From contig CAMKGX010000004.1 in the NCBI GenBank assembly GCA_946412355.1, forward strand, positions 476-64,475: a stretch of 64,000 nt of DNA, written 5' to 3'. This DNA is from an uncultured Clostridia bacterium (GTDB lineage Bacteria > Bacillota > Clostridia > Oscillospirales > Oscillospiraceae). Made by a program: the position numbers and the translations under genes. This document shows positions 8,829 to 59,768 of the stretch, in pieces; within the stretch, counting starts at the first letter, position 1; every line of letters starts with the position of its first letter. The notes under the pieces are model-generated. The model saw only the letters and a list, made by a program, of their open reading frames with translations. It did not search any database and was not told the DNA's origin.

Positions 8829-8839
8829 GAAAGGCCGCT

Positions 8840-9781: not shown

Positions 9782-9795
9782 AGGGGGACCGGGCC

Positions 9796-10599
9796 ATGAT
9801 TGATACCCACAACAGAACCTTCCGGGCCGGGGCGGTGATTACCGGTATCATGCTGCTCATCATCCTCGTCGGCCTTGTCTGGACGCCCTATGACCCCAAC
9901 GCCATGAACGGCGCGGCCAAGCTGGCCTCCCCCAGCCTTGCCCACCTGCTGGGCACCGACAACTTCGGCCGGGACATCTTCTCCCGTGTGGTGCAGGGGG
10001 CCGGGGCCACGTTCCTCATCGCCGCCGTGTCGGTGGCGGCGGGGCTGGTCATCGGCGTGGTGCTGGGGGGCCTCACCGGCTGGTACGGCGGCTGGGTGGA
10101 TGAGCTTTTGATGCGGCTCAACGATACCCTTACCGCCTTTCCCAGTATCCTGCTGGCCCTGGTGCTGATTGCCCTTTTCGGCAGCGGGAAATACAACATC
10201 ATCTTCGCCCTGGGCCTGCTGTTCGTGCCCACCTTTGCCCGCATCGTCCGCATGGAGGTGGCCAAGCAGAAGGAGCTGGACTACGTCCGCAGCGCCCGGC
10301 TCATGGGCGTGGGCAGCATGCGGATATTGTTCGTCCATATCCTGCCCAACATCGTGCCGGTGCTGCTGTCCACCATCGCCATCAGCTTCAATAACGCGGT
10401 GCTGGCGGAGGCATCCATGAGCTATCTGGGGGTGGGCGTGCAGCCCCCGGACCCCAGCCTGGGCCGTATGCTCAACGAGGCCCAGAGCTATCTGCTCTCC
10501 GCGCCGTGGTACGCCCTGTCCAGCGGCGTGGCCATCGTGCTGCTGGTGCTGGGCTTCGGACTGCTCAGCGAGGGCCTGGGAGGTGAAACCGATGCTTGA
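9796..10599 (+). CDS. Peptide/nickel ABC transporter permease (OppC/DppC-like)
   Basis: LLGTDNFGRDIFSR, HILPN, LSYLGVGVQPPDPSLG-like motifs. Confidence 0.93.
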   Translation: MIDTHNRTFRAGAVITGIMLLIILVGLVWTPYDPNAMNGAAKLASPSLAHLLGTDNFGRDIFSRVVQGAGATFLIAAVSVAAGLVIGVVLGGLTGWYGGWVDELLMRLNDTLTAFPSILLALVLIALFGSGKYNIIFALGLLFVPTFARIVRMEVAKQKELDYVRSARLMGVGSMRILFVHILPNIVPVLLSTIAISFNNAVLAEASMSYLGVGVQPPDPSLGRMLNEAQSYLLSAPWYALSSGVAIVLLVLGFGLLSEGLGGETDA

Positions 10600-11392
10600 A
10601 ATCCGTGATTTGCACGTCACCTTTACCACCACCGGCAAGGAGGCGGTAAAGGGCATCGACCTCACCATCCAGCCGGGAGAGCGGGTGGGCCTGGTGGGGG
10701 AGTCGGGCTCGGGGAAAACCGTGACCGCCATGACCCTCTCCGGCCTTATCGAGCGCAGCATCGTGCAGCTCTCCGGCCAGGTGCTGCTGGACGGCCGTGA
10801 CATTCTCCACTGCTCCCGGGCGGAGCTGCGACAGGTCCACGGCCGGGAGATCGGCATGGTGTTCCAGGAACCCATGACCAGCTTGAACCCCCTCATGCGG
10901 GTGGGGGAGCAGATTGAGGAGACCCTCCGCATCCACACCCACCGCACCCCGGCCCAGCGCAAGGCCCTGGCCCTGGAGGCCATGGCCCAGGTGGGCCTGC
11001 CTGACCCGGAGACCACCTATTATAAATATCCCCATCAGCTCTCCGGCGGCCAGCGGCAGCGGGCCATCATCGCCTCGGCCATGATTATCCTGCCCAAGCT
11101 GCTGATTTGCGACGAGCCCACCACCGCCCTGGATGTGACGGTGCAGAAGCAGATTCTGGATTTGCTGCGCCGCCTCAGCGAGGAATACCACGTGGCGGTG
11201 CTGCTCATCAGCCACGATATGACCGTGGTGCGCCGCCTGTGCGAGAACGTGGCGGTGATGTACCAGGGCCGCATTGTGGAGCGGGGCAGGACGGAGGATA
11301 TCTTCCGCCATCCCCAGGACGAATACACCCGGCGGCTCATCGCCGCCATCCCCACGAGGAAACGCCATGACGCAACCGGAAAAGACAACTGA
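10592..11392 (+). CDS. Peptide ABC transporter ATP-binding protein (OppD-like)
   Basis: [24 protein letters not shown]. Confidence 0.93.
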
Positions 11393-12125
11393 ACACGTGC
11401 TGGAGGTGGCGCATCTCTCCGTCACCTACCACGATAAGCACCTTTTCGCCCCGGACACGTCCTTTCAGGCCCTCACCGACGTGACCTTCCACGTGAACCA
11501 CGGGGAGATTCTGGGCCTGGTGGGGGAGTCGGGCTGCGGCAAATCCACCTTGAGCAAGGCCATTTTGGGCATGCTGCCCCGGGCGGAGGTAAAGGGTGAG
11601 ATCCGCCACTTCACCAAGCGGCCCCAGATGGTGTTCCAGGACCCCTTCGGCAGCCTGAACCCCGCCAAAACCGTGGGTTGGATTCTGGAGGAGCCCTTAC
11701 GGGTGTTCGGCAAGTACGACGCCCCGGAGCGCCGCCGCCGGGTATTGGATATGCTGGAGCGCGTGGGGCTGGGGGAGGAGTACGCCTCCCGGCGGCCCGC
11801 CCAGCTCTCCGGCGGCCAGCGGCAGCGGCTGTCCATCGCCGTGGCGCTGATCCAGCGGCCCCGGTTCATCCTGGCCGACGAGCCGGTGTCCGCCCTGGAT
11901 GTCACCATCCAGGCCCAGATACTGGACTTGCTGTGGGACTTGCGGCAGGAGCTGGATTTGAGCTACCTCTTCATCAGCCATGATCTGAACGTGATCTACT
12001 CTATCTGCGACCGTGTCATGGTGATGGAAAAGGGCCGCATCATCGAGCAGGGCACCGTGGATGAGGTCTACGACCACCCCCAGCAGGAGTACACCCGCAA
12101 GCTGCTGGGCGCGGTGCAGCTATGA
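11367..12125 (+). CDS. Peptide ABC transporter ATP-binding protein (OppF-like)
   Basis: [24 protein letters not shown]. Confidence 0.93.
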
Positions 12126-44789: not shown

Positions 44790-44819
44790 AGGGAGGAGCA
44801 ACGCTCCTCTCTTTTTTTG
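44790..44819 (+). terminator. Intrinsic terminator
   Basis: GAGGAGC-AAC-GCTCCTC followed by a T-run. Confidence 0.65.
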
Positions 44820-45073
44820 ATAAGAGAAAAGAGAAGAGGGAAGAGAAAAGGTGTCCGCTGCGCGGACGGATTTTAAAGGACGGCATCGCCTTCTCCTTGG
44901 GGGAATGTAAGAGTGCGATAAACGGCGGAAACGATGGGGCACCAATAGGAGGGAAACGATACTGCGCGGGGCAGGCAAAAGAATGGAACGGAGTTCTGTT
45001 AAGAACGAAAGATGCTTTTTTAGCGAAAAGGAAGCGCAAAAAAGCAAGGAATACCGCGGCCTTTCGGGTTTTC

Positions 45074-45320
45074 ATGCCGGAATTTGCCACAGGTTAAAAC
45101 GGAAGAAATGCCGTGTAATGCCGCCGATAGAAAAGGAGGAAAAGCCGGAAAAAGCGCAGCATGGAAACAAACAGAATGCCGGGATCGGCTTACGCAGAAA
45201 AGAGAGAAAATGCCGGGTAATGCTACCATATAAAACGGACAAAATGCCGGAATATCCGCTGGGAATGGGTTCGGCAATTTGTCTAAAACTGAGGACTAAA
45301 TGCCGGAATTTGCCGCTTTA
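45074..45320 (+). repeat. Degenerate 34-bp tandem array with an ATGCCG core
   Basis: Cores at 45074, 45108, 45142 (AAGCCG), 45176, 45210 and 45244; one off-phase copy at 45300. Confidence 0.8.
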
Positions 45321-45406
45321 TACTATCCTGTGAGCGCCTTTGCGGCGGGATGCGCTGCCTGCGCAGCGCACTGTGTGGCGGCGATGGGGGGAGACGAAAA
45401 TCCGGC

Positions 45407-45435
45407 TTGTATAAAATGGCCATTCGTGGTAAACT
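45407..45435 (+). promoter_or_regulatory. Promoter of the DUF4160 pair
   Basis: TTGTAT-17 bp-TAAACT with TGn. Confidence 0.55.
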
Positions 45436-45461
45436 GAAAGCGAGAAAGGCGGGTGTTTTCC

Positions 45462-45734
45462 ATGATGTATCCATTTTTGCAGATCGACGGCGATACGGAA
45501 ATTGTGCACTCTGAAATGCTTCCCGGCGGGGAAGTGAAGGTATATGTAGAGAAGCCTGACGCAAAGGACGGTTTTCATCATGCCACCTGTTTTCTGCCGA
45601 CCTATCGCTGGGAGGACATTCAGGGCTTTTCCGCGAAAGAGATTGACCGGTACCAGGAGGTCATCGAGTCGACCGCGCATTTGATTATGGAGTTTGCACA
45701 GACAGGAGGCTTCGACCATGCCGCAGGTCTTTAA
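45462..45734 (+). CDS. Small acidic protein, putative antitoxin partner of DUF4160
   Basis: MMYPFLQIDGDTEIVHS..VKVYVEKPDAKDGFHHA; AAAGG RBS; overlaps the next gene by 17 nt. Confidence 0.7.
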   Translation: MMYPFLQIDGDTEIVHSEMLPGGEVKVYVEKPDAKDGFHHATCFLPTYRWEDIQGFSAKEIDRYQEVIESTAHLIMEFAQTGGFDHAAGL

Positions 45735-45996
45735 GATCGGCGCCTACTGGGTGTATTTCTGGGCAAATGAGAATGAGCCGTTAGAGCCGGTGCACGTTCA
45801 CATTTCGGAGGGGGCACCGGTGGCGAATGGTACAAAAGTATGGATTACAAAGTCCGGAAAATGCCTGCGGTGCAATAACGACTCTCATATCCCTGAAAAA
45901 GTGCTGCGGAACATCATCAGAGTGATTGAAGCGCGCAGCGGCGAAGTCATCGAAAAGTGGGTGGACTTCTTCGGCGAGGCAACATTTTTTTGTTGA
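45718..45996 (+). CDS. DUF4160 domain protein (putative toxin)
   Basis: YWVYFWANENEPLEPVHVH..TKVWI resembles the DUF4160 motif; GGAGG RBS. Confidence 0.75.
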   Translation: MPQVFKIGAYWVYFWANENEPLEPVHVHISEGAPVANGTKVWITKSGKCLRCNNDSHIPEKVLRNIIRVIEARSGEVIEKWVDFFGEATFFC

Positions 45997-46020
45997 TGCT
46001 GCCCACGTCATGAGCATATA

Positions 46021-46066
46021 AAACCCACCCCCGCTTTCAGAATGAAAGCGGGGGTGGGTCTGTTTT
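46021..46066. terminator. Bidirectional intrinsic terminator
   Basis: ACCCACCCCCGCTTTCA-GAA-TGAAAGCGGGGGTGGGT between convergent genes. Confidence 0.8.
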
Positions 46067-46102
46067 ATGGGAAATGACGGTGCGGCACTTGCCGCCAAAG
46101 AG

Positions 46103-47794
46103 TTATGTTGCGCTTTTTACGGCGCCACCGGGATTGGGCTGGGTACCTTGGCGAGGACTTGCCTGCTGACTGGCTTTGCCTTTTCTTGCAGCGGATTTCC
46201 GCTTCGGTTTTCCGTTCTGCACGAGGCGCGGCTTTGTGGAGAGGGAGACACCGTTGAGACATTCAACAGAAACATGTCCGCCTGGAGGAATGCGAAGGGT
46301 AATGTCAGCAGCAACGGTGCTCCTGGTGTTCGGCGGGCTGAAATAAGTGGTAGAAATCCCGTTGTCGGTGTTGGCAGGCGGCTCGATGATTTTCATGAGC
46401 GGTTGGACTGCCATCTGGGCGATATGCATACGCTTTGCCGCAGCCGGTTCGGTGAAGGAGGTGTAGTGATCGCTGGTGACATCCCCCAACGGCTTACCCT
46501 GCAAAAAATGCACGGTAGCAGGATCGTCTGCCAAGCCGCAGTTGTTTTGCAGGAGAGAATCGTAGGTGTTGAACATGATCCGCTCAGAGACAGCGGATTT
46601 TGGAGCGCGCCAGCAGCGGAATGTTTCCTCTTTTACGCCGATATCGCGCAGCCGCTTATTGGCACATTGCAGGACAACATTGCGGCCCATTGCCTTAGCG
46701 GGATTGGTATCCTGGGAGATAATGGGCATTGTACGCAGCTTTTTCGGCTTGTAACGGCTTTGCAGGCTGCGGTAACGGTCCCTCAGAATCAGCGCCGCCT
46801 GGGGGAAAAGCGGACGGGTATAGTCGTGAGTAGCTCCTGCATTGTTGCTTTTCGTGATTCGCACGCGAGCCAGCGACGCATCACCCGGGTCGAAAAGGAT
46901 GTCGCCCCACACAAGGGCTTCTGAAGGGGGAACACGCCCCCAGAGCATCAGCGCTACACCGCAGTCACACCCGCTGGGCGGATGCTGCATGATTAAGGTA
47001 TAGAGTTCATCGCACATGGTCAGGTCGAGCACTGCGGGATTGGCGGCGCGTGCCTGCAGGAGCTTGGTAGATATCTTTTGCTGTGCGTTGGAGGGGACCG
47101 GGTTGACACCGGTACAAAGCGCTTTTTCCAACAGGTATTTCCAAAACCGATACAGAAGCCGTTGCCCGCGATTGGAGATGTTATCCTTTTTGACGGCGGC
47201 GGCAATTTCCGCCTGGGAGATTTCTCTCATGGCTTTATTGGGCAGCGATGCGCATGTGCTCGTTAAGCGAGAGATATGAGCATCAGCTGTTTTCTGGGAA
47301 GCCTTTTTTCCGTCTTCCAATGTAAACTGCTCGGCATAGAGCTGAGCCGCCTCGGACGGCGTAATCGTTTCCGGCTTGCACACGCCACGAAGCAACGAGT
47401 TCAGCAAAACGGCATTCTCGGCAAATAACCGCTTTGCGGTTTCCTCAATGTGCGACTTCACCGCGTCGACATTGCCGCCGTTAAACTTGGTATCTTTAAA
47501 GACCGCACACTGCTTACAGTGCGGCGTATCTATATTGACATTGCCGTGTTTACGCTGATAACTATTGATCCGCTGGCGCCGCGCCTTGCCAGTCAATTGC
47601 AGCACCTTCCCGCTCTCGGGCGAGAGGACGCTGACGCGGCCAGTATAGTCATATTCCCCGTTGACCTGCTTGGTAATGCTGAATTTAAACGCAACACCGT
47701 TATGCCAGTATATCCCCTTATAATGCTCACGTCCGTCAGCAAGCTGCCGCACATCAAATGTGGTGCGTTTGTTATCCCACTCCTTGTCCGTCAT
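46103..47794 (-). CDS. Tyrosine-recombinase-fold protein, predicted catalytically deficient
   Basis: Box I-like LMLWGRVPPSEALVWGDI, box II-like FLQGK..TSDHY; AGGAGGT RBS 14 nt downstream of the upstream recombinase stop region. Confidence 0.7.
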   Translation of the reverse strand: MTDKEWDNKRTTFDVRQLADGREHYKGIYWHNGVAFKFSITKQVNGEYDYTGRVSVLSPESGKVLQLTGKARRQRINSYQRKHGNVNIDTPHCKQCAVFKDTKFNGGNVDAVKSHIEETAKRLFAENAVLLNSLLRGVCKPETITPSEAAQLYAEQFTLEDGKKASQKTADAHISRLTSTCASLPNKAMREISQAEIAAAVKKDNISNRGQRLLYRFWKYLLEKALCTGVNPVPSNAQQKISTKLLQARAANPAVLDLTMCDELYTLIMQHPPSGCDCGVALMLWGRVPPSEALVWGDILFDPGDASLARVRITKSNNAGATHDYTRPLFPQAALILRDRYRSLQSRYKPKKLRTMPIISQDTNPAKAMGRNVVLQCANKRLRDIGVKEETFRCWRAPKSAVSERIMFNTYDSLLQNNCGLADDPATVHFLQGKPLGDVTSDHYTSFTEPAAAKRMHIAQMAVQPLMKIIEPPANTDNGISTTYFSPPNTRSTVAADITLRIPPGGHVSVECLNGVSLSTKPRLVQNGKPKRKSAARKGKASQQASPRQGTQPNPGGAVKSAT

Positions 47795-47808
47795 GATTAA
47801 CCTCCTGA

Positions 47809-49374
47809 TTAAGACCCGATGGCGGGCTTGTTTTCGCGAATACCGCGGGTATTTTTCGACACGTTGCTTGCCTGAAGCATGGTAACTCCTGTATCACAGG
47901 AGACAGAAATGGTACTGCCCGCCTCTTCGGCGTGGACTGTCAGAGTGAGCATCAGCTCCTCACTGCCGTCATTGACAAGCTTGAACTTGTCATAGGCAAT
48001 ATAATTGACATCCTGGTTTGCACACAGTGAGATGGGCGTCAAGGCAGGATGGTGAGATCCGATGGGGAAAAGGACATCCCGCTCCATCTTGGCGGCCAAA
48101 AGCGCCTGGTTGGAAGGCAGCCTGTAATCCGGCTTTGCGGTGATACTCTTGGAGGACTCGTGCCCCATGAGATAGTCAATTTCGTCCTGTGTCAGACCAC
48201 ACTTGTTGCGCCAACGAGAGGCACAGTCCCGGCGGAGCACATAGGCGGTAACCTCATTGTTGTCCACAGCGTCCTTCTGCGGGTCCAAATAGGCCACGTT
48301 GGATACATCGTCCCAAAAAGTGGGGCTCGCAATAAAAGTGCTGAGGTTAGTCCGCACCCAGGCGGAGAGGTCATCTGCTTTCATCAGCGGTTGTGGAGAC
48401 GTGGGGCGGGTCAGATGGCCAAGACAACTTCGGATGACACTTGTGGGACCGGCGGGGATGACTACGGTGCGGTAGGCGTTGTTGGTCTTGAGGGTGGGAC
48501 ACCGTGCGCTGTCTTTCTCCTGAAATAGAATCGTGACAGTGCAACCGAAGTCTGTAAAGGTAATGTCCGTCCACGGATCCACTCCTGCGGCTTCCGCTGT
48601 TCGCGCGGCCCCGGCAAACATCAGCATGGCGCACAGCGCATGCTTGGGATCGGATTCAGCGGCGGTCTGCAAGAATTCGGCAAATTGCTGCCGCACGGAG
48701 TCGCTCAGTGCTTTGACCTGCTCCGGACGAATAAGCTTGAGCCGATTACGCGACCTGAGCACAATAGTGGGGAGGGTGGGATCCACTCCGCACATGGCGT
48801 CATAGATCTTCTGCGCGGCGGTCAGATTGCTATTGGCGGTGTTAATCACGGAGGACGTGCCGGTGTGGCTGTTGCCATTGTTTGTGATGTCCTGGATGAT
48901 GGCTTGCCGCAGTTCATAACGATCCTGGTCAGTGAAGGGCTGGTTCAGATAATCCTGGAGTCTCGGGAGAATGTTAATTCCGAAATAGGTGAGCCACCGT
49001 TTGGCGACGGTGCTGCGCCACTGAGTCCAATCTTTTGGTTCGGTTTTTTCCAGTTTTCTGAAGCTGAGCGTCATGGCGTTATTTTCGTCCAGGCCGTTGC
49101 TGCTATGGGCGGACTGCTGCCGCGCCTGCACCGGGTGACGCAACGCGGACAGGATAGAGTCCACAAGACTCCGCTTTGCCGAATCGATTGCAGTCGGGTT
49201 ATCGGGGACGCCCCTGCGCGGCAGCGTTTTGGACCCGTCAACCCGCGTTTGCGTTCCGTGCTGTACAGCGTAGCCCTGTAGATTGACCGTGGACCTTCCG
49301 GCTTTGCGGGATATGGTGATGTGAGCATCTACATCCGGCCTTTTGGTCGGTACATTAATTGCATTGATTGCCGT
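47809..49374 (-). CDS. Tyrosine recombinase/integrase, apparently active; start codon uncertain
   Basis: MFAGAARTAEA (Arg), LKT (Lys), YVLRR (Arg), LMGH (His), KPDY (Tyr). AAAGGAGG RBS at 49383-49390 points to a start near 49374; the 794-aa ORF-track call overlaps the divergent gene. Confidence 0.8.
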   Translation of the reverse strand, partial: TAINAINVPTKRPDVDAHITISRKAGRSTVNLQGYAVQHGTQTRVDGSKTLPRRGVPDNPTAIDSAKRSLVDSILSALRHPVQARQQSAHSSNGLDENNAMTLSFRKLEKTEPKDWTQWRSTVAKRWLTYFGINILPRLQDYLNQPFTDQDRYELRQAIIQDITNNGNSHTGTSSVINTANSNLTAAQKIYDAMCGVDPTLPTIVLRSRNRLKLIRPEQVKALSDSVRQQFAEFLQTAAESDPKHALCAMLMFAGAARTAEAAGVDPWTDITFTDFGCTVTILFQEKDSARCPTLKTNNAYRTVVIPAGPTSVIRSCLGHLTRPTSPQPLMKADDLSAWVRTNLSTFIASPTFWDDVSNVAYLDPQKDAVDNNEVTAYVLRRDCASRWRNKCGLTQDEIDYLMGHESSKSITAKPDYRLPSNQALLAAKMERDVLFPIGSHHPALTPISLCANQDVNYIAYDKFKLVNDGSEELMLTLTVHAEEAGSTISVSCDTGVTMLQASNVSKNTRGIRENKPAIGS

Positions 49375-49531
49375 GGGATCGCCTCCTTTAGAAAAAGCTC
49401 TGGTATAGTATAGAACTATTAAAGGCGACAAAGCTAGCCAATCGTTCACTTTAGCGGGGAAGAATGTATTGTGAACCGAGGCAGATGTGGTATACTGGAT
49501 CTGGTAGTGAAAATAAGGGAGGGGAATATAC

Positions 49532-51085
49532 ATGGCAGAATCTATAGAATCTGTGTGGAAACGTGGTGTCGATTGTGAACGTACGGAGCTGCTGGGAATC
49601 GACGGGCTGAATGTACTATCGGGGGATATTGATCCGGTGTTCACAGCTGTCAAGAGCGGTGACAGGGGTTGGTACTGTGATACGTGCAGAGAAAGATTGT
49701 ATGTCAAGGAGTATTCCCGGCGCGATCTGCACGATGTCATCCCCCAATGGGTTTGCGACAACAACAAAGCGTCACCATATGATAGGCTTAAATATTTAGG
49801 ACCCAGATTACTATGCCCCAACTGTAACAAGCGGGTATCACCTAAAGAAGAGTTTGCGGCCCCAAAAGCGCGCTGCACATACAGGATGCAGCAGTATATA
49901 GGCCTGGGGGTGATGCTCTCTCCCATCAGACAAGTCAGAAAGAGCATTGACAACCAGATTAGCATAAGCGGCATCGAGAAGATTTTTTCGGGGTGGCTGA
50001 AAGAATTTGATGCAAAGGTACATGAAAGAATGAAATCGCCCGATGTTCTGGGTGTTTTCGTTATTCGCACGGAGGCAGAGCAGGAGTTAACAATTCTGCT
50101 GGATTGCTGGAGTGGGAATCTGCTGGATATTGTGGAACCGGGCGATGCTGATGCGCTGAAGGACAGGTTAAGTGCGCTGCAGGGTAAAAACAAAACAAAA
50201 GAATTGTTTATTGACCCTTATAACTGGATATATGATGCAGTAAAGGCTGTATACAAAAGGGCGTCCATCAAGATGGCCCCATTGCGTGTATCGGAAACGG
50301 TTCGAAGAGAGGCGTCAGCCGATATTGCGGCGATAGTCCGGAAGAAAGCGGACAGGAAGCTATTTCGGGATGACCCGAAACAGCTATCCCCGAGGAGGAA
50401 GAAGAAAAAGGATTGGTTACAGCAGACAATCCAGGGCCTGGAGGATCTGGAAAAGGGTATCTGCGTGATGGCAGAAGCCGCCAAAAGAGAATCGATAAGT
50501 CCACGTTTGTCTACTTTCTCAAAAAACCTACAGCGCTATTGGCGTAATAACGAGATAGCTATTTCAAACTGTGAAGTTGATAGTTTACCTGACAGCGCGA
50601 TAGATGCCATTCGGACGGAACAGGAAGCTCTTTCCTACACCAACGGATGTGGGCTGCCGGCCTTGCGGGCCCGCACGCTGTACACAGACGCGGCAGAGAA
50701 TTGCTTTAACGACTTCTTCGGCATAGGGGGGGAAAACGGATTCAACCTGAGGAAAATGGATGACGGGATAATGTATAACGCACTGATGAGTTGGGAGCTG
50801 AACAAATCATCACGCTATGTGCCCATTGACATGATCCCCTATTTGATAGCCGCCATTGAGCCGGCGGTTGATGTGCTGAATAGTGAAGGCTCCATGAGAG
50901 AGATGTGCTTCCACCCGGAAAACCGTGACCGGCTGCTGAAAGAAGCATATCAATTCGGATTTCCACAATTGGTTGTAGAGAGAAACCTTGCTGCCGCAAA
51001 CAGGCTGATTCGACAGCAACGCAGAAACAGACGAGGGGACGCAATCGAAAGAAGCGCATGGACAGAAGAGGACTGGCAGAAGTGA
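49532..51085 (+). CDS. ISL3-family transposase-derived protein with degenerate DDE motif
   Basis: CxxC..CxxC zinc finger (CDTC, CPNC), KARCTYRM, LGVFVI, LDIVE, FIDPY, LRARTLY; GGAGG RBS. Confidence 0.72.
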   Translation: MAESIESVWKRGVDCERTELLGIDGLNVLSGDIDPVFTAVKSGDRGWYCDTCRERLYVKEYSRRDLHDVIPQWVCDNNKASPYDRLKYLGPRLLCPNCNKRVSPKEEFAAPKARCTYRMQQYIGLGVMLSPIRQVRKSIDNQISISGIEKIFSGWLKEFDAKVHERMKSPDVLGVFVIRTEAEQELTILLDCWSGNLLDIVEPGDADALKDRLSALQGKNKTKELFIDPYNWIYDAVKAVYKRASIKMAPLRVSETVRREASADIAAIVRKKADRKLFRDDPKQLSPRRKKKKDWLQQTIQGLEDLEKGICVMAEAAKRESISPRLSTFSKNLQRYWRNNEIAISNCEVDSLPDSAIDAIRTEQEALSYTNGCGLPALRARTLYTDAAENCFNDFFGIGGENGFNLRKMDDGIMYNALMSWELNKSSRYVPIDMIPYLIAAIEPAVDVLNSEGSMREMCFHPENRDRLLKEAYQFGFPQLVVERNLAAANRLIRQQRRNRRGDAIERSAWTEEDWQK

Positions 51086-51105
51086 TATAGCCGGGGCATA
51101 CAGAT

Positions 51106-51154
51106 AAAAACAGCGGGCCGGGTGAGCAGAGATGCTCTCCCGGCCCGCTGTTTT
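51106..51154 (+). terminator. Intrinsic terminator
   Basis: AAAACAGCGGGCCGGG..CCCGGCCCGCTGTTTT. Confidence 0.8.
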
Positions 51155-51253
51155 GCGGAGACCGACCTACTGATACTATATTTAATATAGCGTATGTCAC
51201 GTAAAACTGGGCTGTGCAGCAGCAAAATGATTCAAAAAAGCCAAAAAAAGTGC

Positions 51254-51282
51254 TTGCAATAGGGGACACATAGTGTTATAAT
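51254..51282 (+). promoter_or_regulatory. Strong sigma-A promoter upstream of the serine recombinase unit
   Basis: TTGCAA-17 bp-TATAAT with TGn. Confidence 0.7.
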
Positions 51283-51599
51283 AGGGTAAAAGAAAAAAGT
51301 GCGGCAGCAAGAGGGGGCGGCAACCCCCACTTGCCTGCATAGGTGAAGTGAGCACCTACACAGCAGAAATGAATCTGCACCGCACCTGTAGTATATTCTT
51401 TTTTCGCTTCGTTTGCAAGGGGGGAAAGGGTATGCGAAGGGACGGGGCAGTATGTGCACCGTGTAGGACTGACCTGCACGGTTTTTCTTATTTCTTCGGA
51501 AAGGAGGTTCGTCCGGCCTGCGGGGGCAGGCTGGGCAGGTATGTTTGCCGGCATACCTTCATATGTTGGAACAACAAAACGCATATGGAGGGTATCATA

Positions 51600-51704
51600 A
51601 TGAAACGCAAAGACACGACGACCTATCGCGTTACGCGTCACTTTGAGGGGACCCGCTCCGCCAGGGAGGTAGTGGCGGCGCTGGTCAGGACCCACAGCCG
51701 ATAA
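51600..51704 (+). CDS. Small (34 aa) protein coupled to the serine recombinase
   Basis: GGAGG RBS; MKRKDTTTYRVTRHFEGTRSAREVVAALVRTHSR*; stop 4 nt before the recombinase ATG. Confidence 0.6.
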   Translation: MKRKDTTTYRVTRHFEGTRSAREVVAALVRTHSR

Positions 51705-51708
51705 GCCT

Positions 51709-53319
51709 ATGGGTACGAAAGATACATACCGCGTCGGGCGCTACGCCCGACTTTCCCGGGAGGACGGGGACAAGCTGGAGAGCGACAGCATCGTCAACCA
51801 GCAGCGGGTGATAGAGGACTACTGCGCGGTCCATGCCGGGCTGGTCATCGTAGAGGACTATGCGGACGACGGCTTTACCGGCACCAACTTTAACCGCCCT
51901 GCGTTCCGGCGGATGCTGGACGACATTGAGAAGAACAAAATCGACTGCATCGTCGTGAAGGACCTGTCCCGTTTCGGCCGTGACTATATCGACATGGGCT
52001 ACTACCTGGAGCGGTACCTGCCCAGCCGGAATATACGGTTCATTGCCATCAATGACAATGTGGACAGCCTGAATGGGCCCTATGACATGCTGCTGCCGCT
52101 GAAGAACGTCTTCAACACACAGTACGCCAAGGACATCTCCGGGAAGGTGCGGAGTGCCTTCCGCGTCAAGCAGCAGCGGGGCGAATTCGTGGGCGCCTTT
52201 GCCTCCTACGGCTACCAGAAGGACCCGGAGAACCACAACAGGCTGATGGTTGACCCGGTGGCAGCCCGGGTGGTTTTGCGGGTGTTTCAGATGGCAGCCC
52301 AGGGCATCGGGCAGGTGCGCATTGCCAAGACACTGAACGAGGAGAAGATTCCCTGTCCCAGTGAGTATAAGAAGATGATGGGCATGAAGTACTGCAACAA
52401 CCACCGCCTGGAGACCACCCGGTACTGGACCTACGCCACCATTCACCGCATGCTGACCAATGAAATGTACGCGGGTGCCATGGTGCAGAACCGCAGTGTG
52501 CGGCCCACGATGCACGGCAAGGCAAAGGCGCTGGATAAGAAGGACTGGGTGGTGGTGGACAATACCCACGAGGCCATTATCTCCCGGGAGCTGTGGGACA
52601 CGGTGCAGGCGCAGGTGGCCAAGAATGGCCGGGAGATCGACTTCCAGGGCAACCTGGGCCTGTTCGCAGGCTTTCTGTTCTGCGGTGATTGCGGACGGGC
52701 CATGGTCAAGACTATTTGGGGCAAGAAGACCACCTACTCCTGCGGCTCCTACCGCCGGTATGGGGCGACGGTGTGCAGCAGTCATTCCACGCCTATGGAA
52801 ACGCTGGAGGCCATCATTCTGGCGGACCTGAATCGCATTATCGCAGAGGTGAAGGATCTGCGCCAGGTGGCGGAGTCGTGCCGGGAGGAGAGCCCCCTGC
52901 AGGCGCGGCGCTCGTCCGAGCAGCAGCGTCTTACCGCCGCCTTGACACGGGTGCAGCACCTGAAGAAGGGCGCCTATGAAGATTACAAGGAGAACCTGCT
53001 GTCCCGGGACGAGTATCTCCGCTATAAGGAGGACTACGACAAGCAGGAGGCGTCATTGCAGGGGCAACTGGCTCAGCTGGCGCAGCAGGAGGACCCTCAA
53101 GAGCTTTTGCAGGAGCCCTGGGTGGACCAGCTCCTGCGGTTGGGCTGCCTCACAACGCTGGACCGGGCGACCCTGGCGCAGACGGTGAAGGAAATCCGGG
53201 TGTTTGAGGACAAGCACATCGAGATTACCTACCTCTTCTCCGACGCGCTGCGGGTGCTGTTGGAAAAACCCGGCGAGGAGGAGGGACAGGCCGCCCGCGA
53301 GGAGAACTGCACACCTTAA
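51709..53319 (+). CDS. Large serine recombinase (resolvase + recombinase + zinc-ribbon + coiled coil; TnpX/TndX-like)
   Basis: YARLSREDG (catalytic Ser), SIVNQ, DDGFTGTNFNRPAF, VKDLSRFGRDY, FCGDCG..CGSY..CSSH. Confidence 0.93.
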   Translation: MGTKDTYRVGRYARLSREDGDKLESDSIVNQQRVIEDYCAVHAGLVIVEDYADDGFTGTNFNRPAFRRMLDDIEKNKIDCIVVKDLSRFGRDYIDMGYYLERYLPSRNIRFIAINDNVDSLNGPYDMLLPLKNVFNTQYAKDISGKVRSAFRVKQQRGEFVGAFASYGYQKDPENHNRLMVDPVAARVVLRVFQMAAQGIGQVRIAKTLNEEKIPCPSEYKKMMGMKYCNNHRLETTRYWTYATIHRMLTNEMYAGAMVQNRSVRPTMHGKAKALDKKDWVVVDNTHEAIISRELWDTVQAQVAKNGREIDFQGNLGLFAGFLFCGDCGRAMVKTIWGKKTTYSCGSYRRYGATVCSSHSTPMETLEAIILADLNRIIAEVKDLRQVAESCREESPLQARRSSEQQRLTAALTRVQHLKKGAYEDYKENLLSRDEYLRYKEDYDKQEASLQGQLAQLAQQEDPQELLQEPWVDQLLRLGCLTTLDRATLAQTVKEIRVFEDKHIEITYLFSDALRVLLEKPGEEEGQAAREENCTP

Positions 53320-53499
53320 GGGCAGCGAACAGCTGCCCCAAAAGGACGGCAGGATGCGCAACCTGCTATTTTCAACAGAAGAAAAGGATGGGTGCGGTGA
53401 GAAAGAAAACCGTTTCTCGCCGGGCCCAAATAAAGGTACATATAGGGGACACATAAGCGAGGGCGTGTGCCCAGATAATATGATAAGGAGGTAATACAT

Positions 53500-53859
53500 A
53501 TGAAACGTCACGGTAAACAAGCAAACGCAAGGCTGTATCACTTCGGCAGGAGGGAGAGCAGCACCACCGCTCCGGCTGGGTGGGGGAGGGAGCGGATGAT
53601 GCTCTCGGGTGGGCTGGATATGGACTGTCGTAGCCGCGGCGCATTCACGGCTTGGGGGGTACCTGAAGCTGATAGGGTGAGCCTGTACCGGCAGGGCTGT
53701 GTGCTGACGGGAGGAGGTGCGGCGTAAAAAACGAATTTGCACAGCATTGACAATCTGTTTACTCTGGCAGAGCCGCTTGGCGTTACCGTGGGTAAAATGA
53801 TTGCGAGAAAACACTATTGCAACGGCAGAGAGGGGCTGTTCCCCTCCCGCACACAATAA
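53500..53859 (+). pseudogene. Possible decayed XRE-type HTH gene (in-frame TAA at 53725-53727)
   Basis: AAGGAGGT RBS and ATG 53500; the same frame after the stop reads HSIDNLFTLAEPLGVTVGKMI, resembling the C-terminal helices of XRE HTH domains. Confidence 0.35.
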
Positions 53860-53885
53860 TAATTTACGAGAGAAGAGGTAAGAAA

Positions 53886-54857
53886 ATGAGCATTATGGAC
53901 GATTATCAGAATAGCCAGAAGTTTTTCTTTGGCATGGCCGGTGGTTATAACGCCTTCGACGTGTGCGCCGCCTTCATCCTGGAGGAGGTGCGGCTGTATC
54001 GGAACAAGAACGGCGGGCAGAACATGGTGTGCACGCTGCGGAACTGCAAGGGCGCCATCGCCGGCATCTGCTTTGATTACTGCGGAGAGTTGGATGAGTC
54101 CAGCGCCGGCACCCCTGTGATGGTGCAGGGTAGGATGGGCTCCTACAAGGGCGCGCCCCAGATTCGGATTATCGACATCTGGCCTCTGGATGCTGACGAC
54201 GCGCAGAACGACATCCGGACGCTGCTGCCCCACGGGTTGTTGTCGGGGGAAGAGGGGTTTAAGACGTTCCGGGATGCCATGGTGGCGAAGATCCAGGACG
54301 GGGACTATCTCCTGTTGTGCAAGGCGTTGGTGGACGAAAACAAGGAGGTGTTCAGTTCCTGCCCGGCGTCCACCGGCAGCCATCACGCCTGCGTGGGCGG
54401 TCTGCTGACCCACACCTTCGAGGTGATGGAGTGGGCGTATAACTTCGCTGAATACTACAATGATACCTATGACTTTGGCATTGACAAAGAGCTGCTGACT
54501 GCCGGGGCGGTGCTCCACGACATCGGCAAGGTGCGTGAGTATGGCTTTGACAGCACCGGCGCGGCAATGCGGCCCACGGATGCCATGAAGGAGAACGCCC
54601 ATGCGCTGGAGGGCGCCATGATGATTCGGGAGATGGCCCAGGAGCTGGGCACGCCGGAGGATAAGGCAAGGAAGCTGGAAAACCTGGTGGCCAGCCACCA
54701 CACCGCCTATCCGTTCCGCGTTGGCGTGAGCCCCATCACGCCGGAGGCCAAGCTGCTGGCGGTGGTGGACAACCTGGACAGCAGCGTGAGCAGTAACTTC
54801 GGTAAGGACGTCACTTTTTTGGAGGGCAAGCCGGTGCACACCGGAGACGTAGCGTGA
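53886..54857 (+). CDS. YhaM/CBF1-like OB-fold + HD-domain 3'-5' exoribonuclease family protein
   Basis: HHACVGGLLTHT, GAVLHDIGKVREY, HALEG, ASHH, DNLD; GAGGT RBS. Confidence 0.85.
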   Translation: MSIMDDYQNSQKFFFGMAGGYNAFDVCAAFILEEVRLYRNKNGGQNMVCTLRNCKGAIAGICFDYCGELDESSAGTPVMVQGRMGSYKGAPQIRIIDIWPLDADDAQNDIRTLLPHGLLSGEEGFKTFRDAMVAKIQDGDYLLLCKALVDENKEVFSSCPASTGSHHACVGGLLTHTFEVMEWAYNFAEYYNDTYDFGIDKELLTAGAVLHDIGKVREYGFDSTGAAMRPTDAMKENAHALEGAMMIREMAQELGTPEDKARKLENLVASHHTAYPFRVGVSPITPEAKLLAVVDNLDSSVSSNFGKDVTFLEGKPVHTGDVA

Positions 54858-54890
54858 GGGGCCGCGGGAATGTGTATAACGGGATAATCA

Positions 54891-54936: not shown

Positions 54937-55434
54937 ATTTGAGACCCCTACAGAATTACACTGCTCTCAAACGTTCAGGCTCTTGCCCACGTTTCTGCCG
55001 AGGTTTGAGACCCCTACAGAATTACACTGCTCTCAAACGACCATTTGTTGACCACGGCACAATTTTCCGTTTGAGACCCCTACAGAATTACACTGCTCTC
55101 AAACCCCGCGACCATGCTGATTTTGAAAAGCGCCGTTTGAGACCCCTACAGAATTACACTGCTCTCAAACCACCTCACAGCTGCAGGCATACGTTTGCAA
55201 GTTTGAGACCCCTACAGAATTACACTGCTCCCAAACTCACGGGCAGTATCAGCCAGCGGGATATGGGTTTGAGACCCCTACAGAATTACACTGCTCTCAA
55301 ACCGTGATTTATTTACCCCTGCTGCGATTGCCGTTTGAGACCCCTACAGAATCACACTGCTCTCAAACGTTGACGGCCTTTGCTAATAGGCAAAGGGAGT
55401 TTGAGACCCCTACAGAATTGCACTGCTCTCAAAC
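54937..55434 (-). CRISPR. Type II-A CRISPR array: 8 repeats of 36 bp, 7 spacers of 30 bp
   Basis: Repeat (minus sense) GTTTGAGAGCAGTGTAATTCTGTAGGGGTCTCAAAC at 54937, 55003, 55069, 55135, 55201, 55267, 55333 and 55399 (66-bp period); terminal repeat at 54937 is degenerate. Confidence 0.98.
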
Positions 55435-55508: not shown

Positions 55509-55670
55509 TCAGCAAATTTCGCAGAGGGACTCGTCTACGATGTACCTCTGCTCTCCGGGCAGCTTTGCGTGTTCGCAGCTGTCCAGCAGAACAGCATTAT
55601 AACCGTGCCGGAGCGCAGAATCAAGAAACAATTCTGCATCCCGGTCGGCAATCAGACTGCGCCAGCTCAT
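55509..55670 (-). pseudogene. cas1::csn2 in-frame deletion scar (53 codons)
   Basis: ATG overlaps the cas9 stop and reads MSWRS (type II Cas1-like start); the rest, ..ELFLDSALRHGYNAVLLDS..RYIVDESLCEIC*, resembles a Csn2 C-terminus. Confidence 0.8.
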
Positions 55671-58600
55671 ACCAGCTCCAAGAGGTTCCCGGATTGCTTC
55701 TCCCACAGGCCGGAGGCGGAGACGTCGATCACCCGCACATCGGAGTAGTTCTTTTTCCAATTAGACGCTGTGGTACTGAAGTTGACTGTTGCCGCAGCTT
55801 TTCCGGCCCCTCCAATGGCTGTCAAATCACATCCTCCGGCAATGCGCCCAAAGACCTGATGGATGTTCAGCAATGCCTTTGCTTGCTCCGGAACTGTCAA
55901 GGAGCGGAAGGCTTCCTGCCCGTCGCGGAGGATTTCTGTGGGCGGATTGACGCGCTTTCGGTAGATAGAAGACTCCAGCTTTGTAAGATACAGCTCGTAC
56001 AATGCCAGGTTTTTCTCGGCAGACACCTTGTCGTAAGTCTCGTCAAACATATAGGACGGGTTTTTGCTTACTTTTTCGGCCAGCATCTCCAACTTCTTGA
56101 GATAGAATTGCCAGAACGGCGCATCGGAGAATTGCACAATAGGTTGGACAATCAGGGATTTCCCCTTACTGGAGCTGCCGGAAATACACACCCGGAAGCC
56201 ATCCAGCGACAACACGGTGTTGATCTTCCAGGGACGCATCCCCAGAGGGAAGGACACCTCGTCCACCGGCTTGCCCAGAATCCGTCCTACGCGATCCTTC
56301 GCATACTCCCGGGCAAAAGCTTCATCTTCAAGGAATCTCTGCCCGTGGAGAAGCTCCACCGGCATGATAAAAAGCTCCGCCTTTTTCCCTGCCCTGTAAC
56401 GCACAGGGATAAAGAACATGACGCTGGCGCTATTATATCCACCGTATTTCTCCGGGGGCAAATCCTTCTTGCGAGGCACAAGGCCCGCAGAGGGGGAGTA
56501 GATCGTCTGGTCAAACAATTTTCCGGTCTTAAAGAAAGCGTATTTGCTGAAGTGTGCCGTATTCTTCACGGCAGTGGCCTTGACCTTGGCAAGCATCCCC
56601 TCGCCGTCCCAGACCGTCCTGCCGCCGGCGATCACCGGGTTGGTAAAGAGGGTCTTCGTCTTGATGCTGTACTTGCTGTGAACGTCGAAGTTCGGGGTGA
56701 ACTTTGCGTGATACACATTGCCGGTGACAATGTTCAAGTAGGCGTCAACGGCGTGGTGCAGGTCGTTGAAGGCGCGGGATTTCAGCAGCTCAAATTCCTG
56801 GCGGAATTCAGAGGTGAGCCGTGCCTTACAGTAGACGATTTCCGCATCCGGATAGCGTTCTTTCAGCAGCGTGGCCACCGCCTTGGCGGACTGGGAGGTT
56901 TCCGTGAGCTGCCGGTTGATAAAGCCGCGCCGCTCCTCATCCGTGAATGGAGTTTCGCGGGTCAGACGCCGGTATTTTTCCTCGCTGATCAATTCAGCGT
57001 CCTTCAGGTATTTCCAGAAGCCTGCCCTCACCTGGCGGATCTCACTCTTTATAGGATAGTCATCGCTCTTGGCTCCGTTCTCCGTGGAGAGCACCAGCAC
57101 CTTATTGTTGATGATGCTGTCGTCTTTTACGTAGGCCTGCGGATAAATGTGGTCAATGTCGTACTTCTTGGTCCACAGCTTCTCCAGACTGATGGGCGTA
57201 TCGCTGTACATGGACTTGCCCAACTGGCGATAATAGAGAAACAGCTTATCGCTTTGCAGACGGCTGTCAGCGCTGTCACCCATCGCTTCCAACTCCTGCC
57301 GAAGCCGCGGGACATCCTCGTGCCGGCAGTGGTCGTAGAGTTCCATCAGCTGCTGGTAGCGGGACTTGGTGCGTTTGCCCTTCTGATCCTCTCGCGCCCC
57401 ACGAGTCATCTCCACAAAAATCTTTTTCGGGGTGCCGAATGCCTTCGTGACGTCCTTGACGATATCCAGCGTCCTGTAAACAGAGCGCTTCACAGTGCTA
57501 GACAGATACATAGCGTCCATGCGTTCGGAAAGACTCTGGGGGTTGTGGGCATAGTATTCGCGCTGCGCAGCCTCGATTTCGGCGGCAAACGTGAATCGGT
57601 CAGAAAGGAGCTCCATCAGGTTGCACTGGGTACGCCACAATGCGTCAATGACGGTGAAGGCTTCGCCGGTATCCTTCGATGCGCCCATAAGTTCCGCCAG
57701 GAAAGCCCGGGAAAGGCGGCCAAAATCCTTCCATCGCTGTAAGCAAAGGTAACGGCGATTCTCCTCGCTCAAATCGGGATACTCCCGCTCCAGCCACTTT
57801 GCCAGACGCGTCTTGTCCTCGGCATAAGATGCCCGCTCAACAATGCGTTCTGCGTCGTGCTCGGTCAGCGCACCGGCCTCCAGCAGCCGCTTAAATGCCA
57901 TCTGCGGCGCCAGATTGGATTTGATTTCCTCGTCAATGCCACTGACGCTGTCCTCCTCGCCCCTGGCGATGACTCCCTCTGAAAGCAGGTAATCCAGCAG
58001 CTTCTTCCGGGTGACTTTCTTTTTGCAGAGGAACAGCTCGCTGTAAATCCGCTGCTTCAGGTCAACTGAAATCCGAACACCGTTGATGCGGAGGTTGTTG
58101 ATTTCATTGAGCACGGTGAACTTGTGGTACAGCAGGGAGTCCTTGGGGAGCACATCTTCGCCCGGCAGATAGGCGCACTTTCCTGTCAGGTTCCGGATAA
58201 AGGCGTCCTCGCTGGCATCCAGATCCACCATCTGTTCAAAATTCCAAGGGTAGATTTTCCCCGGCTTGCGTACGACCCACGCATGCGCTGAGGCCGTGTT
58301 CAACGGCCCCACATAGTAGGGGATGCGGAACAGGAAAATGGATTCAATCTTGTCGGCTACCGTCAACCCCTGGCTATCAGCCTGAGCCAGGAAGGGGAGG
58401 TAGCGCTGTGCGTTGGCCAGGATTTTTTTAAGCTCGAACCAGTATAGCTGGTGGGGGATAACCCGGTTATCCCCATCACGTTGCTTGGGCATGAAAGTGC
58501 GCAGCCCGAGGCGCTCCTTCATGTCCGCAAATTCAGCCTGGTCCTCAGCATCGGGTGTGATATCCTTGATAGAGGCAAGAACGTATTTGGAGAATGCCTC

Positions 58601-59731
58601 TTTGTCTTTCCTCTTCAAATCGGATGTGTTCTTGCTATCCGTGTGATAGGAGTACGCAACGTAGTTGTCCTGCCCAACGGCGCGGAACATGGCATCATAT
58701 CGCTCCGGACAGTATTTGCGGATTACCTTCTTCAAGAAGGCAAGATCCGCCCGGTGTTGCTCATAGGTGTGCACCTTTGCTGCGGAAATCGTGTCAAACG
58801 CTCCGATTGCATCCACCAGCACAGACCAGTCGTATACGCTGCGCAAGGCGGTAATCAGCTCGAAGTCATCACCGAGCTTCGCTGCCAGCTCACCCAACTT
58901 ATCATCGTCCCATGCCAGTGAGACAGAGCCCAGCTCGCCGTAACCTTCCCGTCCGGGGAATAGTTCTTTCACTTGACGGGTTCCGCCGGCGAGAAGCTTG
59001 ATAATGGCTGCCTGGCTGAACGGAAACCCCTCCGTGCCATCCTTCGGAGCCTTGGCACCGCCCAGAAGAGCAGCCGTAAGCTCTTTTTCTTTCGCTGTAA
59101 CGCCTATATGCTTGCGCAGAGCGGCGGACACCTTTTCCTCATCTGCCCCATCCCAGGGATAGAGATAGTCCCGGTCATCAAAGAATTTGCGGAACGAAGT
59201 ATAGGTACCGGAAAAGCTCTTGAGTTCAGCAAGACTGTTTTTATCAATGTTGCTGAGAAAATGTCCGCGGTGTGCCGCGAGCCAGGCACAGGCAAGATAG
59301 ACCAGCCGCACATCGTGGGGGCGGGCATCGTTCATCAAATCACAAATCAGGTGGTGGATGGTAGGATATTGGGTGTAGTACTCCACATCCGTATAGCCTG
59401 CATCATTAAACAGAGAGAACTGCTGACCCGACTCATCACGGAACAGCGCACTTTCGCGCAGCCGCTTGAAAAATCCCGGATCGACCTTGGCGATCTCCTC
59501 CGCAAAAAGCTCCTGCGTCAGCAAAACCCGCTGCTGCCGCCGATCGAGGCGGCGTCTTCCGGTGCGAAAGCCACGCCGAGCGGCATTGAGTTCTGCCGCA
59601 TCGAAAACCTGTACACCCCAGGCTGGCTCCCCGTGGAATTTTAAGAGAGAATACTGCTCGTCCGTCACAGCGTAACCCACAGAGTCAGTACCGATATCCA
59701 GACCGAGATAAAAGTTTTTTTGCCCGCTCAT
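55667..59731 (-). CDS. cas9: Type II-A CRISPR effector Cas9 (1354 aa)
   Basis: RuvC-I LGLDIGTDSVG, Arg-rich bridge helix, RIPYYVGPL, RuvC-II IFVEMTR, HNH YDIDHIYPQ..NNKVL..N..K, RuvC-III HHAVDAYL; all catalytic residues present; GGAGG RBS before ATG 59731. Confidence 0.98.
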   Translation of the reverse strand: MSGQKNFYLGLDIGTDSVGYAVTDEQYSLLKFHGEPAWGVQVFDAAELNAARRGFRTGRRRLDRRQQRVLLTQELFAEEIAKVDPGFFKRLRESALFRDESGQQFSLFNDAGYTDVEYYTQYPTIHHLICDLMNDARPHDVRLVYLACAWLAAHRGHFLSNIDKNSLAELKSFSGTYTSFRKFFDDRDYLYPWDGADEEKVSAALRKHIGVTAKEKELTAALLGGAKAPKDGTEGFPFSQAAIIKLLAGGTRQVKELFPGREGYGELGSVSLAWDDDKLGELAAKLGDDFELITALRSVYDWSVLVDAIGAFDTISAAKVHTYEQHRADLAFLKKVIRKYCPERYDAMFRAVGQDNYVAYSYHTDSKNTSDLKRKDKEAFSKYVLASIKDITPDAEDQAEFADMKERLGLRTFMPKQRDGDNRVIPHQLYWFELKKILANAQRYLPFLAQADSQGLTVADKIESIFLFRIPYYVGPLNTASAHAWVVRKPGKIYPWNFEQMVDLDASEDAFIRNLTGKCAYLPGEDVLPKDSLLYHKFTVLNEINNLRINGVRISVDLKQRIYSELFLCKKKVTRKKLLDYLLSEGVIARGEEDSVSGIDEEIKSNLAPQMAFKRLLEAGALTEHDAERIVERASYAEDKTRLAKWLEREYPDLSEENRRYLCLQRWKDFGRLSRAFLAELMGASKDTGEAFTVIDALWRTQCNLMELLSDRFTFAAEIEAAQREYYAHNPQSLSERMDAMYLSSTVKRSVYRTLDIVKDVTKAFGTPKKIFVEMTRGAREDQKGKRTKSRYQQLMELYDHCRHEDVPRLRQELEAMGDSADSRLQSDKLFLYYRQLGKSMYSDTPISLEKLWTKKYDIDHIYPQAYVKDDSIINNKVLVLSTENGAKSDDYPIKSEIRQVRAGFWKYLKDAELISEEKYRRLTRETPFTDEERRGFINRQLTETSQSAKAVATLLKERYPDAEIVYCKARLTSEFRQEFELLKSRAFNDLHHAVDAYLNIVTGNVYHAKFTPNFDVHSKYSIKTKTLFTNPVIAGGRTVWDGEGMLAKVKATAVKNTAHFSKYAFFKTGKLFDQTIYSPSAGLVPRKKDLPPEKYGGYNSASVMFFIPVRYRAGKKAELFIMPVELLHGQRFLEDEAFAREYAKDRVGRILGKPVDEVSFPLGMRPWKINTVLSLDGFRVCISGSSSKGKSLIVQPIVQFSDAPFWQFYLKKLEMLAEKVSKNPSYMFDETYDKVSAEKNLALYELYLTKLESSIYRKRVNPPTEILRDGQEAFRSLTVPEQAKALLNIHQVFGRIAGGCDLTAIGGAGKAAATVNFSTTASNWKKNYSDVRVIDVSASGLWEKQSGNLLELV

Positions 59732-59732
59732 C

Positions 59733-59761
59733 TTGACAACCTCCCTAAACCGTCGTATTAT
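59733..59761 (+). promoter_or_regulatory. tracrRNA promoter
   Basis: TTGACA-17 bp-TATTAT directly upstream of the anti-repeat. Confidence 0.75.
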
Positions 59762-59768
59762 GACCATG

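Follow-up and report, generated by a model that had tools for sequence, protein, structure and literature searches.

Why should a mobile element carry, beside a gene for a tyrosine recombinase (YR), a second gene for a protein of the same fold that has lost its catalytic pocket and kept its nucleophilic tyrosine? The question is raised by a stretch of 64,000 nt (the window, to which all coordinates refer unless another locus is named) from contig CAMKGX010000004.1 of an uncultured Clostridia bacterium of the Oscillospiraceae, in which an integrative element of ~9.97 kb spans positions 44901-54872. Two genes near its left end, both transcribed on the minus strand, form the pair in question. The upstream gene, A (47809-49374; 521 aa), encodes a divergent YR and probably has a non-canonical start, and the downstream gene, B (46103-47794; 563 aa, with an ATG start), encodes a protein with a lambda-Int-like fold in which the pocket is lost and Tyr444 is kept. 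They are separated by a 14-bp spacer (47795-47808, minus strand; TCAGGAGGTTAATC), whose AGGAGG is the ribosome-binding site for B. A third gene of the element is called C, and related loci found elsewhere are given L-numbers. An initial annotation of the window had described two co-oriented genes with this gap and AGGAGG, and had quoted the motifs GAARTAE, LKT, YVLRR, MGH and PDY from A and GRVPPSE, ERIMF, QGK and TSDHY from B. The window sequence bears out the arrangement, and every one of the quoted motifs is present in it. The answer proposed below is that the two families conserve complementary parts of what would be one active site.

The fold of B is that of a tyrosine recombinase, as the annotation had supposed. 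Its AlphaFold model (pLDDT 91.8, alignment depth 83 sequences) has full-length lambda Int as its best Foldseek match (1z1b_B, E 9.2e-6, probability 1.0), followed by integron IntI and Cre, and is laid out as an N-terminal beta domain, a helical core-binding domain, a catalytic domain and a beta-rich tail. By sequence B has no match in Pfam (PF00589 included), NCBIfam, PHROGs, PADLOC or the PDB. At the catalytic positions the window protein has P289 for Arg-I, G320 for the Lys, R405 at the His-I position, F408 for Arg-II and K434 for His-II, with Y444 as the Tyr, in keeping with a YR nucleophile lying about 9-12 residues past His-II. An exhaustive profile search gives a family that comprises 434 clusters when grouped at 50% identity, of which 238 have E <= 1e-30, and residues were counted in 133 full-length representatives. 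The nucleophile Tyr444 is kept in 132 of these; the Arg-I position is occupied by S, T, P, D or N, the Lys position by G in 107, and the Arg-II (L/Q/H/R/I/K/F) and His-II (K/E/Q/R/L/H/M) positions are mixed. Only F217 and Y444 are invariant in the 83-sequence alignment, in which mean column identity is 22%, and the further conserved motifs, GATH(D/N)(Y/F)(T/S)RP, F217 and W296, are unrelated to catalysis. The dN/dS ratio of B is 0.18-0.25. The loss of R/K/R/H with retention of the Tyr is a family-wide feature and not decay, in agreement with the earlier argument from the intact reading frame. Since the 434-cluster family shares the pattern and dN/dS is ~0.2, we consider the loss of the B pocket to be ancient and selected and simple decay to be excluded.

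Protein A presents the converse picture. With the ACG codon at the gene start counted as residue 1, its catalytic residues are R233 (RTAEA), K271 (LKT), Y353 and R356 (YVLRR), H380 (MGH) and Y392 (PDY). It scores 17.7 bits against PF00589, under the gathering cut-off of 27.1, matches phrog_1 'integrase' with an E of 7e-8, and has no PDB match by sequence. Its AlphaFold model (pLDDT 79.5, alignment depth 11 sequences) is laid out as that of B, with Cre as the top Foldseek match (probability 0.99), and the long N-terminal extensions and beta-rich C-terminal tails that had been reported for both proteins are visible in both models. Homologues of A were gathered by synteny because word-based searching, even with an 11-sequence profile, returned only close relatives; the resulting sample comprises 18 sequences, which outside the window clade are 22-35% identical to window A. 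The Arg of RTAEA, the Lys of LKT, the Tyr and Arg of AYxLRR and the His of GH are invariant in all 18, with the His-I position being Tyr. The nucleophile position, 10-12 residues after His-II, is Tyr in ten sequences and Leu, Met, Phe or Trp in two each, and in a maximum-likelihood tree of A these are four separate replacements, each in a deeply diverged and well-supported pair. The A protein of L047 contains no Tyr within 45 residues after His-II. A second Tyr site in A at alternative positions ('DY' or 'ERY') was considered and rejected, as L047 A has neither. The dN/dS of A is 0.17-0.23.

Conservation in the two families is therefore complementary, and this is the main new result: in the alignments, A is maintained as a pocket without a nucleophile of its own and B as a nucleophile without a pocket. 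That the two proteins correspond position by position, as the initial annotation had aligned them, is supported by the profile of 133 B homologues, which aligns A-family proteins in the same register and matches A-family ORFs (open reading frames) with whole-sequence E values of 2e-14 to 1e-5; it also matches a canonical integrase (E 4e-5). BLASTP of A against B is not significant, and hhalign of small A and B profiles gives a probability of 1.8%, though in the right register. Homology of A and B is shown by the larger B profile and by the fold.

The two genes also travel together. Wherever DNA upstream of B is available, the gene immediately before it is A; this holds for ~19 distinct loci, found in metagenomes and Oscillospiraceae-type genomes, with gaps ranging from -47 to +22 bp, so that the co-occurrence on which the annotation had staked its proposal holds in every informative locus. 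The lone exception to adjacency is L020, a truncated remnant of B. Broken copies also occur, with B split in L006 and carrying a TGA in L012, and with A broken in L042; in L016 an IS21 element lies upstream of A. The pair is rare, with one copy in the window's own genome and a presence in 2 of 401 genomes of the order. No relatives were found in the plasmid collection (72,556 plasmids) or in the phage and IMG/VR collections, and PADLOC assigns A and B to no defence family. Judged by linkage and dN/dS, the pair is obligate and under purifying selection.

The ends of the element that carries the pair can be located by comparison with related DNA. Metagenome contig L029 carries the window from 54499 to 44898 at 95.7% identity and then continues into different host DNA. 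The left end is marked by a copy of GGGAATG at 44901-44907, with L029 homology stopping at 44898, and the right end by a second copy at 54866-54872, 9 bp past the stop codon of an HD gene, with L026 homology stopping at 54858. In L029 the host DNA flanking the element contains a 75-aa ORF followed by khpA, rpsP and ffh, and matches contig C2, from the same genome as the window, at 98-99% identity; there the 75-aa ORF forms the first part of a polysaccharide-deacetylase gene that is intact and encodes 214 aa. Two insertion sites of the element are thus seen within one species, and C2 is the empty counterpart of the site that is filled in L029; this is the comparison of empty and filled sites that had been proposed as a check. 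The junctions read ...GGCCGC GGGAATG TAAGAG... for attP, ...CCTTGG GGGAATG TGTATA... for attB in the window and ...GCGTGG GGGAATG AGGACA... for attB in C2, and thus a 7-bp core, GGGAATG, is common to attP and two independent attB sites. Both targets, in the window and in C2, also share TGGGGGAATG. YR overlap regions have this same length of seven base pairs. For a homodimeric recombinase dyad symmetry would be expected, but none is seen at attP or attB above shuffled controls, and a search of 43-56.5 kb against Rfam gave no match. DNA identity between the element and L026 is uneven, being ~66-69% in the part with genes C, A and B (46308-50636) and 86% in the part with a serine recombinase and the HD gene (50636-54858), and the element is therefore mosaic. 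The pattern can be read as an exchange of modules, or as faster evolution of the A/B module and its repeat motif.

Between the left element end and a pair of small genes that includes a DUF4160 gene is a direct-repeat array (45074-45320, plus strand) with ~6-7 copies of AAATGCCGGnAAT... at a period of ~34 bp. Arrays are present at other loci, and the repeat motif differs with the protein clade. Those of L026 (AATCCCAGCATTTTGTCC, ~190 bp from the end), L024 (GAATTCACAGGAAA) and L015 (AATCACAC, 3 copies, ~146 bp before the terminal repeat) are located downstream of B; that of L047 (ATTCACAG) is ~3 kb from B, and that of L001 (AAACCTGCTACAAA, ~11 copies) is at the far end of the element. The order of B, array, 150-190 bp and then core or end is shared by the window and L026, whose elements have a serine recombinase, and by L015, whose element has a tyrosine integrase (Int). 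As the order recurs with either kind of integrase, the element end is tied to the A/B module. The arrays have the look of arm-type sites, to which the N-terminal domains of A, of B or of both may bind. In L015 one copy of a 15-bp terminal direct repeat lies against the 3' end of tRNA-Pro(GGG) and the other 7.6 kb from it, a significant match for a 15-mer; in L001, L004, L042 and L021, terminal direct repeats give chance-level matches only. tRNA-Pro(GGG) adjoins A/B elements in three clades (L015 11796-11887; L042 7448-7523; L001 1487-1567).

Because the conservation of A and B is complementary, we favour a model in which they share an active site. Taking together the two roles that are considered below, it is fairly probable that A and B form a hetero-oligomer with a divided active site. 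A would supply the phosphate-activating pocket, consisting of Arg, Lys, Tyr at the His-I position, Arg and His, and B, whose own pocket is dead, would donate the nucleophilic Tyr in trans, as the neighbouring protomer does in Flp and SSV1 integrase. The N-terminal domains of the two proteins would bind the array of 34-bp period between B and the element end, and the complex would break and reseal DNA at the short core, in this element GGGAATG, ~150-190 bp beyond the array. Site-specific recombination at the end of the 9.97-kb integrative element nearer to B would then be the work of A and B, and not of the serine recombinase. In this full form, as an obligate heteromer with a shared active site recombining at the array-proximal core, the model is advanced tentatively. 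Donation of the Tyr in trans was one of several options in the initial annotation, and it gains support from the pentad being intact in 18 of 18 A sequences and from the loss of the A Tyr at least four times; the physical heteromer and the donation itself are what we infer from these patterns.

Half-site complementation, built artificially with Flp mutants, proved cleavage in trans, and if A gives the pocket and B the Tyr, the pair would be a natural and evolutionarily stable version of it. Recombinase biochemists could then handle the nucleophile donor and the phosphate activator as separate proteins, and the arrangement would be relevant to designing genome-engineering recombinases that work only as heterodimers. 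It would also define a sizeable family, of 434 clusters at 50% identity, that is unrecognised by Pfam, NCBIfam, PHROGs and PADLOC and is therefore missed by annotation. The A/B pair sets apart a class of small integrative elements carried by gut bacteria of the Oscillospiraceae type, and since the same species has an empty site for the element described here, testing it by experiment is realistic. Cleavage in trans is established for Flp and has been proposed likewise for SSV1 Int (PMC8371274). In these enzymes the active site is made by two protomers, one activating the scissile phosphate and the neighbour giving the Tyr, which is what we propose for A and B; however, Flp and SSV1 Int are homo-oligomers in which each protomer has both halves, whereas the A/B halves reside in two paralogous genes, of which B never has the pocket and A is often without the Tyr. 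We found no published description of a two-gene arrangement in which pocket and Tyr are split.

Several observations weigh against recombination by a shared A/B site. Window A retains its own Tyr and could act alone here, and the sample of 18 A sequences is small. The array is 2-3 kb from B in L043 and L047. Several bases shared between att cores can be seen with large serine recombinases too. Another integrase is present in every well-resolved A/B element, being a large serine recombinase in the window, L026, L029, L056 and L021 and a canonical Int, often with Xis, in L001, L004, L008, L042, L043, L015, L017 and L016, and a second integrase in such elements looks redundant. The pair had been put forward initially as the mobility module, and this is not obviously so given the serine recombinase in the same 10-kb unit and the canonical Int of other clades. 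There is also a difficulty of stoichiometry: if only the A pockets are active, an A2B2 complex could exchange one strand pair, and full recombination would need replication or another resolver. Since only half of the active sites in such an assembly would be able to fire, it would of necessity be a machine for single-strand exchange or nicking. We regard as evenly poised the proposition that A, bearing the pentad without need of a Tyr, and B, as a dedicated nucleophile donor, form such a machine, guided by the arm-type repeats and working beside the conventional integrase of gut Clostridia elements, for example in strand-specific copy-out or in the initiation of transfer.

Two biological roles are considered: recombination at the array-proximal core, a serious candidate that falls somewhat short of an even chance, and nicking for transfer or replication, a serious rival though rather less likely than not. 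In the latter case the same split-site complex would be a relaxase-like or replication-initiating nickase for an integrative mobilizable element (IME), the array would belong to an oriT or ori, and integration would be carried out by the serine or tyrosine integrase. A parallel is offered by the MOB_M relaxases (TcpM of pCW3, MobK of pIGRK and MpsA/MpsB of SGI1), which like A and B are YR-derived, are missed by the Pfam integrase profile and are nearly always found beside a true integrase in integrative elements; 96% of them lie near an integrase (bioRxiv 10.64898/2026.01.13.699239), as A and B do near theirs, and one of them, MpsA, needs a separate partner protein, MpsB (PMC8152469). A half-active heteromer would suit nicking better than full recombination. 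The element of L015, bounded by direct repeats (4156-11810) and encoding a ribbon-helix-helix protein, Xis, Int, two helix-turn-helix (HTH) proteins, a 126-aa protein, A and B, would have the minimal make-up of an IME if A/B is its Mob function; NikA-like relaxosome genes are near the pairs of L043 and L017, and L001, L004 and L008 have a helicase of RecD2/TraA type without a relaxase domain. Yet the known MOB_M proteins are short, consisting of the catalytic domain only, with both pentad and Tyr and without arm-binding or core-binding domains (PMC8152469), whereas A and B are proteins of 520-560 aa whose models contain both of these domains and whose catalytic residues are split, so that the pair would not belong to MOB_M as defined. 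YR chemistry moreover puts the protein on the 3' end, whereas classical relaxases use the 5' end. Among the products of the window element there is already an HD protein that includes a MobH-like stretch, the 72,556 plasmids contain no match, and both the 7-bp core and the geometry between array and end are in keeping with recombination.

It is unlikely that B is a non-catalytic architectural, targeting or regulatory subunit in the manner of Tfp and GinC, with its Tyr structural or contacting DNA, in which case A would catalyse in cis and the lineages with a Tyr-less A would form non-catalytic DNA-binding complexes. Multi-recombinase elements are known to include YR-fold partners that have no catalytic motifs (PMC10214605), window A has all six catalytic residues, and B conserves other, non-catalytic motifs, namely GATH(D/N)(Y/F)(T/S)RP, F217 and W296. 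Tfp and GinC, however, lose the whole RHRY set including the Tyr, while the Tyr of B is one of two invariant columns among 83 sequences, and the A pentad is invariant in all four Tyr-losing lineages, which is hard to explain without chemistry. That B is no more than a duplicate of A on its way to becoming a pseudogene is almost certainly wrong, for although four of its six catalytic residues are gone and some relatives are broken (the split B of L006, the TGA in L012 and the remnant in L020), the frame is intact, 434 clusters share the pattern, dN/dS is ~0.2, the model has a pLDDT of 91.8 and B is always paired with A.

The shared-site model also has to be placed among recombinases that act with partners. 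Multi-recombinase transposons comprise Tn554 (TnpA/TnpB/TnpC), SE (IntA/Tfp/IntB/Srap), GInts and RITs (PMC10214605), and the A/B elements resemble them in that two or more YR-fold genes lie side by side as an operon towards one end of a small integrative element, that the cores are short, at 6-7 bp, and that few targets are preferred. Certain of their partners (Tfp, GinC) likewise are without catalytic motifs (PMC10214605). The differences are these: the catalytic members of those transposons all have RHRY and their dead partners lose the Tyr as well, whereas B lacks RHR and keeps the Tyr; A/B elements also carry a separate serine or tyrosine integrase, where in those transposons the recombinases are the sole strand-transfer enzymes; no conserved small gene like TnpC, Srap or GinD is seen at A/B loci; and A and B have no sequence match to plasmid-borne relatives, their hosts being Oscillospiraceae-type Clostridia, to judge by where relatives of the genes occur. 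With no RHR in B, an extra integrase and no small partner, the pair falls outside the Tn554, SE, GInt and RIT groups. XerC and XerD are similarly a heteromeric pair of paralogous YRs with an asymmetric core, in which strand exchange can be limited to one partner, but both Xer proteins have complete active sites, cleave in cis and are chromosomal housekeeping enzymes.

The initial annotation had further grouped A and B with a divergent ISL3-derived gene as a three-gene mobility module, and this grouping does not survive comparison with other loci. The gene in question, C (49532-51085, plus strand), encodes a divergent protein of 517 aa with a zinc-ribbon N-terminus and weak similarity to the N-terminal half of ISL3 transposases. 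It matches NCBIfam transpos_ISL3 (NF033550) over model positions 42-203 of 370 with an E of 8.5e-9 and 35 bits against a cut-off of 180, PF01610 with 16 bits against a cut-off of 23, and phrog_5749 with an E of 1.4e-12, so that a full-length ISL3 transposase with a DDE domain and a score above cut-off is not what is found. Its dN/dS is 0.30. ISL3-like C is found only in the window clade (L026, L029, L056), and its place is taken by a DUF6076-type gene in L001, L004 and L042, by HTH genes in L015, L017 and L021, and by nothing in L006. The ISL3-like C and the DUF6076-type gene are unrelated (hhalign probability 0.6%), and a conserved three-gene module was rejected. A terminator-like 22-nt hairpin (51107-51154, 95% complementary) follows gene C.

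The remaining genes of the right half are on the plus strand. The element's other candidate integrase is a large serine recombinase of 536 aa (51709-53319) with Pfam matches to Resolvase (E 6e-21), Recombinase (1.4e-24) and Zn_ribbon_recom (1e-14), all above cut-offs, and a dN/dS of 0.10. Directly upstream of it at 51600-51704 is a 34-aa ORF (MKRKDTTTYRVTRHFEG...), and genes of equal length are called in L026 and L056; its product may be a small partner or a leader peptide. The last gene of the element encodes a 346-aa protein with an OB-fold and an HD domain (53817-54857; Pfam HD E 3.5e-16). This protein is YhaM-like (NCBIfam E 2.3e-21) and has, at residues 160-211, a weak match to the N-terminal portion of MobH-family relaxases (E 1.6e-6); it could be the element's relaxase or a nuclease.

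At the other end of the element, two overlapping small genes on the plus strand (45453-45996) encode a 93-aa protein and a 100-aa DUF4160 protein (PF13711, E 1e-13); both are accessory, being in L029 and missing from L026. Between the DUF4160 gene and B, which are convergent, there is a perfect 17-nt hairpin (46023-46059), an inverted repeat with 100% complementarity that is probably a bidirectional terminator.

The start of gene A is unusual. Its first codon, at 49374, is ACG, not a canonical start, with AAAGGAGG 7 nt upstream (49366-49391 region). Homologue P0022, which is 64% identical, has an ATG at exactly this position; the ACG is kept in L029, L030 and L018 as well as the window, with ATG in L026; and in L018 an in-frame stop just upstream of the ACG leaves A without any canonical start. 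Together, the aligned ATG, the retention of the ACG and the upstream stop suggest that A probably initiates at the non-canonical codon ACG, and this may hold its level low. An alternative start would be an ATC two codons downstream.

The surroundings of the element are those of a variable region. Just outside the left end is a repeat of ~60 bp (44811-44883) that recurs on at least four other contigs of the same genome and in a congener, and looks like a REP-like dispersed repeat. The element is inserted right beside a CRISPR array (54939-55400), which begins ~70 bp past the right end and whose repeats are visible as RPLQNYTALKP in a spurious ORF; a Cas9 gene follows (55667-59767, minus strand, 1366 aa). 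From ~44 kb onwards, as far as the right edge of the window, G+C content drops from ~0.62-0.70 to 0.47-0.58. Sequence shared with a congener (G412) stops at 44817, and the whole right part, including CRISPR-Cas9, is variable DNA.

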